64,000 nucleotides of DNA from Candidatus Aenigmatarchaeota archaeon (GTDB lineage Archaea > Aenigmatarchaeota > Aenigmatarchaeia > Aenigmatarchaeales > Aenigmatarchaeaceae), in assembly GCA_043814985.1 (NCBI GenBank), contig JBDRJK010000019.1, positions 1 to 64,000 on the forward strand, in the 5' to 3' direction. Under the pieces are notes generated by a model. That model did not search any database. It saw only the letters and a program-made list of their open reading frames with translations, and was not told the DNA's origin. This document shows, in pieces, positions 26,820 through 48,953 of the stretch; within the stretch, counting starts at the first letter, position 1, and each line of letters starts with the position of its first letter. A program made the position numbers and the translations under genes.

Positions 26820-27203
26820 ATGAAGAAGGCTCTTAAGATAAGGAACCTTAGATGGTTTTTTATTGGATTCGGGACAGCATTCGTTCTGTTATCCTTCTTA
26901 GTGAGTTTCTACACTTTGAAAGTCATTGTGCCTAGCCAGATAAACTCTGCAGCTTCGTTCGCGGAAACAGCCTGCTATTCTAACACTTGCTATGAAATGT
27001 CGAACATCACGGCAGACGAGTACTACGAAATCCAAAAATTCTGCAGGGACAAAACAGAAGAGGCTTTGGTTCTGGCAATCAAACCAGAGGGGGAAGTGTT
27101 CCTCACGCTTGTGACTAGGAACTTCAACTGGATATTGATAACAGGGATTTCTTTCTTGATAGCGGGTTTTATTGTTTTTAGAATGGAGAAAAGGCCTGTA
27201 TGA
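26820..27203 (+). CDS. Hypothetical membrane protein
   Basis: 127-aa ORF with two TM segments. Confidence 0.6.
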   Translation: MKKALKIRNLRWFFIGFGTAFVLLSFLVSFYTLKVIVPSQINSAASFAETACYSNTCYEMSNITADEYYEIQKFCRDKTEEALVLAIKPEGEVFLTLVTRNFNWILITGISFLIAGFIVFRMEKRPV

Positions 27204-27238: not shown

Positions 27239-27246
27239 TTTAAATA
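27239..27246 (+). promoter_or_regulatory. Probable TATA box of the 23S rRNA transcription unit
   Basis: TTTAAATA upstream of the structured 23S leader. Confidence 0.5.
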
Positions 27247-27386
27247 CTTTTTAAAATTAATAACTTCTTACGTGATAACATGTTAACTTTAATTTAACAT
27301 TGGAAAACTTGCTGATTAGGCGACTAGATGAAGCTCATTCTGACAACACTACAGTTGTCATCCAATCCATACTATCAAGTGTGGAT

Positions 27387-27453
27387 GCCATGTGACTTAA
27401 GAAACTAATTTTGAGCCCGCAAGGCTATGAGAAACCCAGGGGTAAATGATGGC
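27387..27453 (+). ncRNA. Box C/D-like guide RNA 1 in the pre-23S leader
   Basis: Terminal stem GCCA/TGGC; degenerate C box; D' TTGA at 27411; GCC-CGCAA-GGC hairpin; C' ATGAGAA; D ATGA at 27446. Guides are complementary to 23S 30111-30117 and 30125-30135. Confidence 0.55.
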
Positions 27454-27529
27454 GCGCTGTTATTAAATTGACAGCGTTTTAATAGTGAGATAAGATGCTC
27501 ATCGCAAAGCAATTTTTGCGGTGTAAGGG

Positions 27530-27602
27530 TAAAGAAGACGATGAATTGTTTGAACACCTATTGATGCGCAAGCAGATGAGAAATACGTCGAACGAGTCTT
27601 TA
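27530..27602 (+). ncRNA. Box C/D guide RNA 2 in the pre-23S leader; predicted to guide Um2552 (E. coli numbering)
   Basis: Stem TAAAGA/TCTTTA; C ACGATGA 27538-27544; guide TGAACACCT 27551-27559 pairs with AGGTGTTCA 30237-30245; D' TTGA 27561; TGC-GCAA-GCA hairpin; C'; D ACGA 27592. Confidence 0.7.
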
Positions 27603-30285
27603 GATCATCATGATCAATGATACCAGCAGAGGCAGAAGGTAGGGTCTGAGCAGTAATGCCAATAGGTGGATAGCTCAGTTCTCGAGATTGATGAAGATCC
27701 TAGCAAGCTGGGATAAGCTCGGGCTAGGCGCAAGCAGCCTTTGAACCCGAGATAGTTGAATGCGACATCGCACTGGTTTCGGCCAGTGATTCGAAAGAAT
27801 CAAGAACCCGCTGAACTGAAGCATCTTAGTAAGCGGAGGAGGAGAAAGCAAACGCGATTCCGTTATTAACGGCGAGTGAAAACGGAACAGAGCAAACCGA
27901 ATTGCTGCAGAAATGCAGTTTAGATGTGGTGCCTGGTACAGCTTAGCTGGTTGACTCGAAGTCGCCTGGAATGGCGCACTATAAACTGTGATAGTCAGGT
28001 AGAGGAAGACCGGAAAGTTGATTCAGGAAAAGACTACCATTTCTTGGATATGAAGTGGGAATACGGCTGGCATCAACAGCCAACTCTAAATATTTCGAGA
28101 GTCTGATAGCGGATAAGTAAGGTAACTGAAAGCTGAAAAGTATTCTTAACAGAAGATGAAAAGATCTTGAAACCTATTGGTTATAGTCATCTATGGTCTG
28201 AAAGGTGCTCTTGTGAAGGAAAGTTGAGTGATCAACATATACGAGCAGGAGCTTACAGGATTATAGAATCCGTTTTGAAACACGGAGCAGGGAGTTTGTC
28301 TTTGTGGCGAGCATAATTGCTTCAAGCAAGTATGCATAGCGAAAGCGAAAAGTGCGTAGCGCAAGCATGGCACTGGGTCTGAAAGGGCCTGCAGTCACAG
28401 GGGCAAGACCAGAAAGCACTTGATCTAACCCATGTCAGGATGAAGCGTAGCGAAAGCTGCGTGGAGGTCCGAACCATTGTTGAGCTGCAAATCACTAGGA
28501 TGAGCAGGGGTTAGGGGTGAAAAGCCAAACGAACGTGCTGATAGCTGGTTCCTTCCGAAATATGTCTTAGCATAGCCTTGTCTGAGATAGCTAAAAGGGT
28601 AAAGCACTGATTGAGGAGTCAAGGGAAGAAATTCCCAACTTCCCTGTCAAACTAATAATCTATTAGCGTCGTAGAAGACAGGAGTGCGGGTGCTGGGGTA
28701 AGCCCGGTATCCGAAAAGGGAACAACCTAGACTAAGGTTAAGGTCCCTAATTCTTAGCTAATTCACAAAGTTTGTCCCAGTCCTAAAACAGGAGGGGCGT
28801 AGGCTTAGAAGTTGCCATCGCATAATCAACGTGTAATAACGGACCTCTCTAGGTCTGGGGCGGCGAAAATGGATGGGAGTAAGTTAAGAACCGATACCTT
28901 AGATTGCGAAAGCAATAGTATAGGAAGGCGTTCTGCTTGGGTAGAAGCATCTGCGTAAGCAGGTGTGGACCGGGCAGAATTGAAAATCCTGCTGGGAGTA
29001 GCAGCAAAGAAAGGTTAGAATCCTTTCCACCTGAAGGATCAGGTTTTCACGACAACATTTATTGGTCGTGAGTTAGTCAGTCCTAACCCCACCCTTAACT
29101 GACGTGGGGGAAGGTAAACATGTTAATATTCATGTACCACGGGCATACGTGTGGCAACACAAGCTCGGCTGTAGACGCTTTAGGATATGCTGACGTAAGT
29201 TAAGCAGTTAAAACCAGGGAGTTCCGTCAAGGAGAGAACTGGTCGAATCTGTGAACAGCTCTGCTGTATAGCGGAGTTCAGCAAATTCCAAGAGCCCATG
29301 AAAATATAGCCGGGAAGGATTGTTCGTGTCTGTACTGAGAACCGATACAGGTATCCTTGCTGAGAAGGTAATGGTGTGTCGAGTGATCCCAATTTAGGGA
29401 ATTGGGCAAATTAGAGTCGTATGTTTGCTAGAAGACTTGCCTATGCAGAAGTGCATAGGTTGCAATAACAAGGAGGAAGCGACTGTTTAACAAAAACATA
29501 GCTGACTGCTAAGGAGAAATCCCTTGTATAGTCGGTGAGGCCTGCCCAGTGCGAGTGTGTCAAAGCTGGTTTCAACCGGCCTAAGCCCTCGTCAACGGCG
29601 GCGGTAACTCTGACCGTCTTAAGGTAGCGTAATCCCTTGTCGATTAAATGTCGACCTGCATGAATGGCTTAACGACTTCCTCACTGTCCCAAATTGGGGC
29701 TCGGCGAAACTGCTATTGTGGTGCATAGGCCACAGACCCTCAGGGGGAAGAGAAGACCCCGTGGATCTTTGCGGTAGCCTGTCGTTGTTGTATGGTTACA
29801 ATTGCATAGCGTAGGTAGTAGTTGTTATGTTAGAGCTTTCGGGCTCTAAATAGACGACAATGTAACACTGCCCTTTTGTAAACATGTAACTAACCCCAAA
29901 ATTTTGGGGAACACCGATTGGTAGACCGCTTGGCTGGGGCGGTACACTCTTGACAAAATATCAAGAGTGCCCAAAGTGATCCTCATCTCCGTCAGAAATG
30001 GAGAGTAGAGTGTAAGCGTAAAAGGATCATTTATTGGATTCAACATAGCAATGAATCCAATTGTGAAAGCATGGGCTAACGAGATGCCGAGCGTTCTTGA
30101 TGGATATCGGTAGTTTCAGAAAAGTTACCCCGGGGATAATGGAGTCGTGGCGGGTGAGAGCTCACATCGACCCCGCGCGTTGCTTCATCGCTGTCGGCTT
30201 CCCCTCTCCTGGCCGTGCAGTAGCGGCCAAGGGTACAGGTGTTCACTGGTTAAAAGGGGACATTAGCTGGGTTCAGTACGTCGTG

Positions 30286-30521
30286 ATCTGATATGGGTTT
30301 ATCTCTTCTCTTTGTATAGCATGATTAGCTTTAGCAATAGCTAGCGATGAAATCATGTGATCGAGTATGGATTAGGGCGATGACTGCACCGCCCCCTTTA
30401 GAATATCTATATATGATAGATAATTCGGGTGTAACTTATGAGCCAATTTTCAATCGATGCTGTGATGAATTGACATTAACTGTCTTGATGAACAGCAAAG
30501 ATTTTCCATATCAGACGACAA
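30286..30521 (+). other. Archaeal BHB-type intron in 23S rRNA helix 93 loop (after E. coli G2597)
   Basis: GTCG-TGA-TCTGATATGG ... CCATATCAGA-CGAC-AAA. Cleavage after the second nucleotide of each bulge restores the conserved GTCGTG|AGACAG. Confidence 0.9.
30371..30447 (+). ncRNA. Intron-encoded box C/D guide RNA; predicted to guide Gm2251
   Basis: C GCGATGA 30377-30383; guide ACCGCCCC 30388-30395 pairs with GGGGCGGT 29936-29943; D' TAGA 30399; C' TAGATAA 30417; second guide 30424-30437; D ATGA 30438. Confidence 0.65.
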
Positions 30522-30889
30522 AGACAGTACGGTCTCTAACTACTGAGGGTGTTATTACCTGACTCTAAGGAAGAATGAGTACGAAAGGAACGTTCTTCCG
30601 TGGCCTCTGGTTAACCGGTTATCTTTTGGTAACGCCGGGTAGCTACGCCATAGCTTTTAACAGCTGAAAGCATCTAAGCTGGAAATTGCCGGGAAAAATA
30701 GGTAATTGGCACAGATAGACTATCTGTTTAATGGGACAGGGATGTAAGCACGAAGCTTCGGCGACGTGTTCAGTTCACTGTTTCCAAGCCTTTTAGCTCA
30801 GACCCCTTTAATTGCCTCTGCTGGTAAAATCTCATTGGTTTTACCGCTTAGCGTTAGCTATATAAAGCTTTAGTTTTAACTATTAGGAA

Positions 30890-31995: not shown

Positions 31996-32263
31996 GTGGG
32001 CTGGGTAGACAGCTGCCCCTGTTAAGGGAGGAAATTCCATCCACCATTAGCCTCAAAGGCTTGCCGTCCCTCGGGATTAGGCTGAAAAGCTTAGGTGTCC
32101 AATAGGGCTTCATGTTCGACTTGGACGATGCTGGCAAGGTGCAAGACCAAACAGCTCTGATGACGAAAGAGGAGCGGGTAGGTTGCATCAGACGAATGCT
32201 GTCAAGCAGGAGTGATTGTTTTTACAGGATCTGCTCACAGAAGATGGATTATGCCCAGGCCAC
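31996..32263 (+). ncRNA. rnpB: RNase P RNA
   Basis: GAGGAAATTCCATC (32028-32041) and ACAGAAGATGGATTAT (32237-32252) form the P4 pseudoknot; P1 is GTGGGCTGGGTA/TGCCCAGGCCAC; T-run follows. Confidence 0.9.
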
Positions 32264-47030: not shown

Positions 47031-48953
47031 TTAAACCCATAGTTGTAACTTTATTTGCACAGGTCCCCACATATAAGGAACCCCTGCAACACTAACAGAC
47101 TCAACAACAATATCTATAGTTGAAACCTCTTCTCCCAGTATATCATTTAACCTTTGGATTGCATCGTCTGATGCGCCTGTTTCATTAACGAAAATATCCC
47201 CATAGCTGACCGAGGCTGGTATCAAGAAGACTGTGTGACCCAAGGAGTTTCCAGGATTGATGCCATAACCTTGAGAGAAATTTAATTCAAATTTATTATC
47301 ACCAGCAATTAGAATACCATCTGGATTTATGTCATGACCAAACCTGACAAATTCTATTATAAGAGGATTGCTGGATGGGTCAGATGGGTCATGATTATAG
47401 AGGGTGTAATCATTGGATTTTGCTAGCTGCTGGGGATCTGAACCACTGTTATAAAGCCATGCAAGCTGCCATTTAGACAAGAGAGCTATTTTGTTGGTTA
47501 GATTGTAGTCCCATCTTACATATTTGTAAAAACCCACAGCAGACGTTGGGTCAGCACCAACATAGTTATCCAATGTTCTCGTTATGTCAATATAATTGTA
47601 GACTTCTTCCAGTTCAGAATAGTTTAGACTAATATAGGAATCCTCTGAAACGATTACTCTCTCATAATCTGTGAAACCATATCTGTAATATTCATCAATG
47701 TCAGCCATAAACCAGAAATATCTACCACTTAAATCATCATATGATATTCCTTGAGAGGTCAGGATGTTTTTTATTTCTTCGTCATACCATTGAACAATTC
47801 CGTTTGATACATCCTTTGTGCTGATGTTATAAAACCTACCATTCCATATGAATTTTAATGTTACATTTTTTACCTGTGTTTCATTAGTAAGGTTTAAGCG
47901 AACACTCATATTGTAGATGTCACCTACAACAAACACTGGTTTTTTGTATCTTATTGGCATTTCTGATTTTACAGTTTGGAAGTGTTGTTTTTTGAATGAT
48001 TGCAGTGTTGTAAGCTGTGTTGTGTTGTAACGGACAACGAAATGTGTTGCTCCGTCGTCTCCTCCCTCACAACCACCTCCAGCATTTTCATCAGGGTTTC
48101 CCCATCTGTATTCAACATAACCTATATTTCTTCCAGTATGAAGATAATCTCTTAAATCATCATAATCTAATAAATGACTACCACCGTCTTTTGGATCTCC
48201 TGTACTTTGGAATAAAAATTGACCATTTAAGAAAATTTTGAACTTGTCATCTACCCATGAAGATTCCACGAACCAATATGCATCAGTAATGTTAGCATCT
48301 GTTGGTACGTCTATTATGTAACTGATATTAACTGTATTGCCGTTGGCTCCTGCACATTTATCACCCTGATCAAATTTAGAAATGCTGCTGTATATGACAT
48401 CCCCCATCACAATTAGGGTGTTGCTCTTTTCCACTGACCTTGCCAAAGCTCTTGCAACATAACCTTCTGTTGCCCTGTACTTCTCATAGCCCGAAGCTAT
48501 TCTGTTAGAAGATATGGATATTGTTGAATCACTGTAAGCAGGTCTTGCTGTGTCAGAAGAATTGTAAACATCATCATTGTCTATCAGAATCCTGTATCCA
48601 AAATTGCTGGGCAAGAAGGTGCCCAAAATATCTTTTGTTATGTTTGCTGCTTCTTCAATTCTTCCTGCTGACCATAGAGAACCTATTATGTCTATGGTGT
48701 TCTTGTCCAAGTCAGTCTCATTCAGAACGCCGTTTGACAGATATATATCAGTCAAATTTTGGGAAGTGACTTCACTAAGCTTAGATTCGGAAAAAATAGT
48801 TAAAACGTCTTCTGACATAGAATGTAGTTGCTGAGCTGCCAAGTAAGGATAATTAGATTCTATTCTGATGAACATCAAACTTGAAATTATAACTGTCATT
48901 ATACCGAACGCTATTATGGAATCCAAAGTCAGTACTACGCCTCTTTTATCCAA
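47031..48953 (-). CDS. Large pilin-like/adhesin protein
   Basis: KRG|VVLTLD plus hydrophobic helix. Confidence 0.7.
   Translation of the reverse strand: MDKRGVVLTLDSIIAFGIMTVIISSLMFIRIESNYPYLAAQQLHSMSEDVLTIFSESKLSEVTSQNLTDIYLSNGVLNETDLDKNTIDIIGSLWSAGRIEEAANITKDILGTFLPSNFGYRILIDNDDVYNSSDTARPAYSDSTISISSNRIASGYEKYRATEGYVARALARSVEKSNTLIVMGDVIYSSISKFDQGDKCAGANGNTVNISYIIDVPTDANITDAYWFVESSWVDDKFKIFLNGQFLFQSTGDPKDGGSHLLDYDDLRDYLHTGRNIGYVEYRWGNPDENAGGGCEGGDDGATHFVVRYNTTQLTTLQSFKKQHFQTVKSEMPIRYKKPVFVVGDIYNMSVRLNLTNETQVKNVTLKFIWNGRFYNISTKDVSNGIVQWYDEEIKNILTSQGISYDDLSGRYFWFMADIDEYYRYGFTDYERVIVSEDSYISLNYSELEEVYNYIDITRTLDNYVGADPTSAVGFYKYVRWDYNLTNKIALLSKWQLAWLYNSGSDPQQLAKSNDYTLYNHDPSDPSSNPLIIEFVRFGHDINPDGILIAGDNKFELNFSQGYGINPGNSLGHTVFLIPASVSYGDIFVNETGASDDAIQRLNDILGEEVSTIDIVVESVSVAGVPYMWGPVQIKLQLWV

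Follow-up and report, generated by a model that had tools for sequence, protein, structure and literature searches.

The locus analysed here raises the question of how the A loop's first nucleotide in 23S rRNA, the equivalent of E. coli U2552, could become 2'-O-methylated in an archaeon with a reduced genome, and whether a small RNA element in the leader of the 23S rRNA gene takes part in this process. The methylated uridine, Um2552, is among the most widely conserved rRNA modifications. An earlier note on this DNA had predicted that the leader bears a box C/D RNA guiding the 2'-O-methylation of U2552, and the comparison of sequences across genomes supports this prediction. The analysed contig C19 is part of an archaeal genome of 808 kb, which is assembled in 21 contigs and 91% complete. 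The window, i.e. the whole stretch of 64,000 nucleotides that was analysed, harbours the 23S rRNA gene and the RNase P RNA, and the 16S gene is situated on a different contig. The features relevant for the leader are:

27642-30805, + strand: 23S rRNA (Rfam RF02540, 2416 bits), the molecule that the leader guide is predicted to target
31997-32262, + strand: RNase P RNA (Rfam)
27239-27246, + strand: TATA-like box TTTAAATA, read directly in the sequence
27387-27453, + strand: box C/D unit 1, in the same leader upstream of the 27534-27601 unit, read in the sequence
27500-27523, + strand: hairpin CATCGCAAA / TTTGCGGTG of the leader, with the motif GGTGTAAGGGT after it, both conserved
27534-27601, + strand: box C/D RNA unit 2, about 40 nt upstream of the 23S gene, downstream of the TATA-like box and just before the leader/trailer helix
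27603-27615, + strand: small hairpin separating the C/D unit from the processing helix, found by cofolding and kept in the leaders of family f1

The open reading frame upstream of the leader ends at 27203, which together with the position of the TATA-like box indicates a 23S leader of about 370 nt. To judge from its sequence, the box is likely the promoter of the pre-23S transcript, with a start near 27270. Comparable TTTAAATA boxes are present upstream of the leaders L024, L027 and L033 of relatives, and reading of the sequence between the box and the 23S gene revealed no run of five or more T. Both arms of the hairpin at 27500-27523 co-vary among the leaders of the relatives, as judged by eye. 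The succession of this hairpin and a GGTG[T/G]AAGGGT motif, here at 27500-27529, was seen in nearly all leaders of the order.

The unit at 27534-27601 displays two K-turns in the correct register with box-like motifs, the register being assigned by the fit to established K-turn geometry. Its parts and the proposed target are:

27534-27539 / 27596-27601, + strand: terminal stem of 6 bp (C-stem of the K-turn), indicated by covariation and present in the minimum-free-energy fold
27538-27544, + strand: box C ACGAUGA, with TGA invariant in 18 of 18 aligned units
27551-27559, + strand: D' guide TGAACACCT, with A27556 as N+5 and the core GAACACC invariant in 18 of 18 aligned units
27561-27564, + strand: box D' UUGA (consensus CUGA) after the single spacer base A27560, with GA invariant in the alignment
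27565-27574, + strand: internal stem UGC/GCA of 3 bp with a GCAA loop, the C-stem of the C'/D' K-turn, in the minimum-free-energy fold
27574-27579, + strand: box C' AGAUGA, from sequence and alignment
27580-27591, + strand: D-guide spacer of 12 nt, diverged in this species
27592-27595, + strand: box D ACGA (non-consensus; consensus CUGA), which is ATGA, TTGA, GTGA or ACGA in relatives
30237-30245, + strand: A loop (helix 92), predicted target AGGTGTTCA of the D' guide and exact reverse complement of 27551-27559

The C box ACGATGA, the guide, the single spacer nucleotide and the D' box TTGA were all found where the earlier note had placed them. The terminal C/D K-turn of archaeal box C/D sRNAs is present, with a 3-nt bulge (G27540-A-U27542) and sheared pairs of G27543-A27544 with G27594-A27595, and so is the internal C'/D' motif, the stem of which co-varies. 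The guide spacers follow the archaeal length of about 12 nt only in part: the distance from C' to D is 12 nt, whereas that from C to D' is 16 nt and ranges from 14 to 26 nt in relatives. A 12-nt spacer is typical for archaeal C/D RNAs, not strictly defining, and insertions into the C-to-D' spacer reportedly lowered the activity of a Methanocaldococcus model RNA. Box C contains a C in place of the U of the consensus RUGAUGA, and despite such off-consensus letters the GA dinucleotides of the boxes are invariant among the aligned units. The 16-nt C-to-D' spacer and the off-consensus boxes make 27534-27601 a putative and atypical member of this class, and they are the main reservations regarding its predicted guide function that arise from the sequence. 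No C/D family of Rfam reached the gathering threshold across the 64-kb window, and nothing was reported over 27534-27601 even at E-values up to 10. The fold energy of the unit is likewise unremarkable (z = -1.36).

The 9 perfect base pairs claimed between the guide at 27551-27559 and the organism's own A loop at 30237-30245 were confirmed by the sequence, as was the pairing of A27556, the fifth base back from D', with U30240. Hence, the unit contains a guide of at least 8 bp, in fact 9, with its target at the fifth position from the D/D' box. The A-loop pentaloop UGUUC begins with U30240, which by alignment to the E. coli A loop we take to be the equivalent of E. coli U2552. This assignment agrees with the accessible part of PMC4644070. 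However, complementarity of this kind is no rarity. Between the leader (27270-27641) and the 23S rRNA, 8 cases of perfect 9-mer complementarity exist versus 4.2 +/- 2.5 in 500 shuffles, 11% of which reach 8, therefore, the A-loop pairing alone is not significant. It gains its significance from the register with the K-turns and from the conservation in relatives.

The comparison within the Aenigmatarchaeota detected the unit in the 23S leader of 36 genomes. A query made of the leader and the 23S 5' end matched 28 of the 41 genomes searched in this order (the genome under study, G000, included), and in 25 of these 28 leaders G[A/G]ACACCT precedes a single base and then a D-type box. The alignment comprised 18 full-size units, in which the inner pairs were fixed by the invariant GA dinucleotides and the outer boundaries were picked by complementarity, so that the covariation of the outermost pairs is partly circular. 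The 8 aligned pairs of the terminal stem form in 100% of the 18 sequences, with changes on both sides in 7 of the 8; in the internal stem all 4 aligned pairs change on both sides and 84% of the cells are paired. The covariation score was 0.496, which none of 500 shuffles reached, versus 0.18 in shuffles, and it fell to at most 0.094 when the partners were slid by 1-3 columns. The covariance model R1 built on this unit recognizes 27534-27601 with 66.7 bits (E 7e-13) as its single match in this genome. It matches 23 of 42 genomes of the order, in exactly one copy per genome and always directly upstream of the 23S gene; the order genomes without a match either had no match to the 23S 5'-end query, or bear half-size forms (G026, G027, G032), or belong to three exceptions treated further below. 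In the class sample of 151 genomes, which is approximately the same set as the phylum sample, R1 matched 24 genomes, and nine matches outside the order, likewise directly upstream of the 23S gene, belong to f9 (3 of 9), f18 (5 of 8) and f30 (1 of 1).

The same guide also occurs in scaffolds that R1 misses, namely in half-size or rearranged form in the leaders of f8, f16 and f23. Family f8, two members of f7 (G038 and G031) and G074 have it in a single-guide half unit, and in G049 the A-loop guide occupies the D position of another double-guide RNA. Whole-genome scans for C/D RNAs were also performed. The first one was discarded as too permissive, since 722 of 1661 candidates passed versus 390 of 983 in the reversed control. 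A stricter version returned 9 candidates versus 1 in the control, with 27534-27601 among the 9; it missed unit 1 of the same leader and is therefore no census.

Whether the guide follows its target when the target changes was examined in the relatives as well, and the outcome favours the guide reading. Guide position 5 faces U2552 in all 29 genomes in which both the guide and the A loop are known, with 8-11 contiguous pairs. Guide position 2 pairs with 2549, as T:A within this order and as C:G within f9 (3/3), and the guide base opposite 2555 forms A:U in the majority of genomes, whereas G049 and G074 have G:C there and G026 the intermediate G.U. The nucleotide at 2552 is not U in five genomes of four families, being G in G023, G030, G025 and G047, which have U at 2556, and A in G043; an A-loop guide was found neither in the leader nor in the 3-kb locus of any of these five. 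A pattern scan for a guide retuned to G2552 in G023, G025 and G030 yielded 4 hits against a control count of 2, which is chance level; no hit lay in a leader, and no two genomes had one in common. The co-loss of the guide with a non-U at 2552 may represent only three or four events. Generally, the relatives are not independent of each other, therefore the tracking patterns amount to a handful of events and not to 34 data points. The tracking is also imperfect, since guide position 2 in f18 and f30 is A opposite A or G, i.e. a mismatch in 5 of 5 cases. The genomes offer a natural experiment, in which the guide was lost by lineages that replaced U2552 with G or A and was altered to match by those with a changed 2549 or 2555.

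Several families of the Aenigmatarchaeota have thus exchanged a nearly universal nucleotide, U2552, and their 23S genes with an altered A loop seem otherwise intact. They occur as single genes, with 2552 being G in L046, L055, L060, L145 and L148 and A in L144. The variant loops mostly read GGGUUU, where C2556 is also changed to U, and one reads GAGUUC. The sole pattern match in G025 was excluded as a guide, because it lies antisense inside the 23S gene, like the second matches in f18.

An exception is G127 (f23), which retains AGGTGTCCA, hence U2552, in a helix 92 with two insertions of about 31 nt flanking it:

L149, about 1400-1560, - strand: helix 92 of G127 with insertions, from the 23S sequence

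Judging from the sequence, these insertions may be small introns or expansion segments. The leader of G127 contains no A-loop guide, and the genome-wide pattern scan returned 8 hits versus 6 in the control. Three of the 8 are of the GGACACC type, and these three, which were the ones inspected, are without C/D architecture.

The second arm of the unit has a different history. The earlier note had proposed that AATACGTCG at 27582-27590 acts as a second, weaker guide by pairing with 30762-30770 including one G-U pair. The pairing does exist, the guide role did not stand because it is not conserved. In the closest relatives, G002 and G001, the site 30762-30770 is identical, yet their D guides differ, and when paired by hand the D guide of G002 has a mismatch at N+5 itself; accordingly, this site was rejected as second target. 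In most relatives the D guide is AAGACGGT, which is complementary to another site:

29611-29620, + strand: UGACCGUCUU, 3' side of helix 69, D-guide target in relatives and unmatched by the D guide of this species

In other orders, 7 of 8 units have AAGACGATC as their D guide, with G118 as the outlier, and 7 of 8 loci read UGAUCGUCUU in the 23S rRNA (G154 was missed by the pattern). The base that changed between AAGACGGT/UGACCGUCUU and AAGACGATC/UGAUCGUCUU is the N+5 nucleotide itself, which is equivalent to position 29614 of the window and by alignment to the E. coli sequence presumably corresponds to about C1920. That the D guide and its target on the helix-69 side change together provides independent evidence for the unit as a working rRNA guide. 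On these grounds, 29611-29620 is the putative ancestral target of the D guide. The D guide has diverged in this species (27580-27591) and in the sister G002 (L011), differently in each, with 29611-29620 unchanged. In our view, the D arm has probably decayed in this species, a recent loss of one of the two arms.

The protein partners of such an RNA are all encoded in this genome, as profile searches identified fibrillarin (266 bits), Nop5 (166 bits) and L7Ae (60 bits). According to the accessible part of PMC12123411, three routes lead to Um2552: RlmE-type enzymes (RrmJ/FtsJ), the SPOUT enzyme RlmR and C/D guides. The suggested check for RrmJ/FtsJ turned out in favour of the guide, as the enzyme was not found in this genome or in 41 genomes of the order; given the 91% completeness, it is to be regarded as not found rather than as proven absent. 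The FtsJ profile obtained three weak hits here, of at most 23.7 bits, which are better matched by Methyltransf_31, TRM5/TYW2 and MTS, and its best score in the 41 order genomes was 40.6 bits. Full-length FtsJ (187-200 bits) was encountered in 2 of 151 class genomes, G078 and G095, the 23S genes of which are both unassembled. A search for the SpoU_methylase domain, which detects it in all 14 control genomes, had no match in this genome. The guide-RNA machinery is the only one of the three known routes to Um2552 that the assembled genome contains. Since neither RrmJ/RlmE nor the SpoU-type RlmR was found, the guide would be the only known route to Um2552 in this lineage.

Cofolding of leader and trailer revealed the following elements:

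27622-27634 / 30813-30825, + strand: processing helix of 13 bp, from the leader-trailer cofold
27636-27639 / 30806-30809, + strand: central helix of 4 bp, bulge-helix-bulge-like, from the cofold, with the bulges on opposite strands
27640-27641, + strand: leader bulge U27640-A27641 with the cut at 27640/27641, from cofold and RNA contigs
30810-30812, + strand: trailer bulge with the cut after A30811, from cofold and RNA contigs
27642-27651 / 30796-30805, + strand: 23S end-to-end helix, from the cofold

In RNA contigs of the runs X8 and X18, which come from two metatranscriptome studies, A30811 is joined directly to A27641. The junction contig of X8, a groundwater metatranscriptome, comprises 120 nt identical to the contig studied here and has a word depth of 859. 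The junction falls into both predicted bulges, as is characteristic of a pre-23S rRNA cleaved and ligated at a bulge-helix-bulge motif. This finding points to a circular or ligated pre-23S rRNA, which possibly persists at a high level. Both C/D units are situated upstream of the leader cut. Four metatranscriptome runs contained no contig over 27346-27633, and such contigs cannot show the ends of small RNAs; a low-depth RNA contig of a relative covers 27269-27345.

Unit 1 (27387-27453) shows a similar construction, with a terminal stem GCCA/TGGC, TTGA on the D' side, TATGA on the C' side, ATGA on the D side, and an internal stem GCC/GGC closed by the loop CGCAA. The best 23S pairing of its D guide is with 30125-30137, comprising 7 + 3 bp with one mismatch and C30129 as N+5, and this stretch adjoins the GGGGAUAA stretch of the peptidyl-transferase ring. 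Homologues of unit 1 were read from the sequences of relatives' leaders, where the terminal stems differ yet stay complementary. The leaders L022 and L025 of family f4 contain at least 4 C/D-like units in tandem, whose guides include GACCGTCCC and GTTATCC; their sequence suggests polycistronic arrays of guides that are transcribed together with the 23S rRNA.

Taking the comparative evidence together, we regard it as very probable that 27534-27601 is a genuine box C/D guide within the pre-23S leader, which is predicted to direct Um2552, so that the precursor of the rRNA apparently includes a guide for its own modification. In such a mechanism, the unit would be transcribed as part of the pre-23S leader, L7Ae would bind the two K-turns, and Nop5 and fibrillarin would then assemble on them. 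By pairing with the A loop of its own 23S rRNA in the opened state, the D' guide would place the 2'-OH of U30240 in the active site of fibrillarin, leading to Um2552. The leader would remain covalently attached until the trailer is transcribed and the leader/trailer helix has formed; subsequently, the splicing endonuclease would cut at 27640/27641 and 30811/30812, followed by ligation of the pre-23S ends and release of the leader together with its C/D units. Because the outer helix needs the trailer, the guide is expected to be tethered while domain V is transcribed, which makes it plausible that it acts in cis before its release, action in trans afterwards being the alternative. A wider proposal, which we put forward tentatively and consider somewhat doubtful in its entirety, is that the pre-23S leader represents an array of C/D units that form RNPs during transcription, act intramolecularly on the peptidyl-transferase region and are discarded by bulge-helix-bulge splicing. 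If this were true, the sites served by the array would be the A loop, the helix-69 side and the 2440s region, each ribosome would obtain one guide with modification coupled to processing, and the array would replace the protein enzyme RlmE in a reduced genome.

Other functions of the leader element have to be weighed against methylation guidance. By analogy to certain C/D snoRNPs of eukaryotes that function in processing, the leader C/D RNP might mainly be a tethered folding chaperone or assembly checkpoint that keeps the A-loop strand open until late 50S assembly, with methylation being secondary or absent. The covalent linkage of guide and target until the bulge-helix-bulge cut fits such a role, the long and variable C-to-D' spacer suits the compact geometry of archaeal methylation poorly, and the leaders of relatives bear several units aimed at the peptidyl-transferase region. 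However, mere pairing would not need the N+5 register on U2552, which is kept in 29/29 genomes despite varying flanks, nor would it explain why the guide is gone where only 2552 and one neighbour change and the rest of the helix is kept; moreover, fibrillarin is retained in the 808-kb genome. A chaperone function is compatible with the guide reading, but we judge it unlikely to be the main role.

Still less probable, and in our opinion very unlikely, is that the K-turns are L7Ae-binding structures for pre-rRNA processing and that the complementarity to the A loop is a functionless relic. The unit adjoins the processing helix, and the decay of the D guide in this species demonstrates that guides of this unit can lose their function, but a relic would hardly keep a 7-nt guide core invariant in 18/18 aligned units while neighbouring spacer bases vary freely, change together with its target in f9, f16 and f23, and reappear in different C/D scaffolds (D' position, D position, half-size units). 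The idea that short motifs have been assembled by chance in an AT-rich spacer could draw on the fact that a complementary 9-mer alone is expected here, as well as on the inconspicuous fold energy and the missing Rfam family match. The conservation and the compensatory changes over at least four orders' worth of families leave it a negligible probability, and judged on these comparisons the chance reading is effectively refuted. The preferred reading remains that of a leader-borne guide for U2552.

Related systems are known from other organisms. The snR52 of yeast is a separately encoded snoRNA, whereas the guide described here is part of the precursor of its target and no FtsJ- or SpoU-type enzyme was found beside it. 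As covered by the accessible part of PMC12123411, snR52 and Nop1 guide the equivalent Um in 25S rRNA, so that both cases concern a C/D-guided 2'-O-methyl group at the U2552 equivalent, which is a prediction in our case. The same part describes RlmE (RrmJ/FtsJ) and RlmR, which yield the same product at the same nucleotide but are protein-only enzymes, and neither family was found here. For archaea, C/D sRNAs have been predicted for the first A-loop nucleotide (E. coli U2552) in five species, according to the available part of Dennis et al. 2015 (PMC4644070). The present unit shares with them the RNP class, the target nucleotide and the N+5 rule, but differs by its location inside the pre-23S leader, its long spacers, its non-consensus D/D' boxes and its affiliation to a DPANN lineage from mesophilic habitats. 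As gene contexts of archaeal C/D RNAs, the accessible part of a 2021 review (PMC7994747) gives ORF overlaps, clusters, tRNA fusions, tRNA introns and free-standing genes. Closest in its logic, in our comparison, is the C/D element in the intron of pre-tRNA-Trp, which guides in cis the methylation of the tRNA it belongs to (D'Orval et al. 2001, via its citation in the accessible part of PMC7994747). In both cases the guide is embedded in the precursor of its target and would be removed by the bulge-helix-bulge splicing endonuclease; the difference is that intron and targets belong to a tRNA there, whereas here the guide sits in an rRNA leader with the target about 2.7 kb downstream, and its action in cis is inferred. 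Dicistronic tRNA-C/D sRNA precursors and C/D clusters are described for Nanoarchaeum equitans and other archaea in the available parts of PMC3491384 and PMC7994747. There too, C/D RNAs without a promoter of their own are matured from a longer stable-RNA precursor, but here the host transcript is the very rRNA that would be modified by the guides. The openly available literature searched, PMC3608112 and PMC5539422 included, contained no report on C/D guides inside an archaeal rRNA leader or on DPANN C/D RNAs. C/D-guided Um2552 is already known, and the conserved arrangement in the pre-23S leader is new with respect to this literature.

The results indicate the route to Um2552 that is most likely used by a whole DPANN phylum. 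Guides situated within the rRNA precursor make the cis and co-transcriptional action of archaeal guide RNPs directly testable, and the rRNA leaders of uncultured archaea appear worth scanning for guide RNAs when modifications are predicted. Two further observations were made during the comparison. The alignment of the 23S 5' domain is broken by gaps of about 1.1 kb and 0.5 kb in G009 (L032/L038) and G014 (L036/L039), which to judge from the sequences suggests introns or insertions. Finally, a free-standing C/D sRNA candidate is located on another contig of the genome under study (C13, + strand, near 47813), with a stem GACA/TGTC, the D' box CTGA and the D box ATGA; it displays perfect matches of 10 nt and 8 nt to 16S rRNA.
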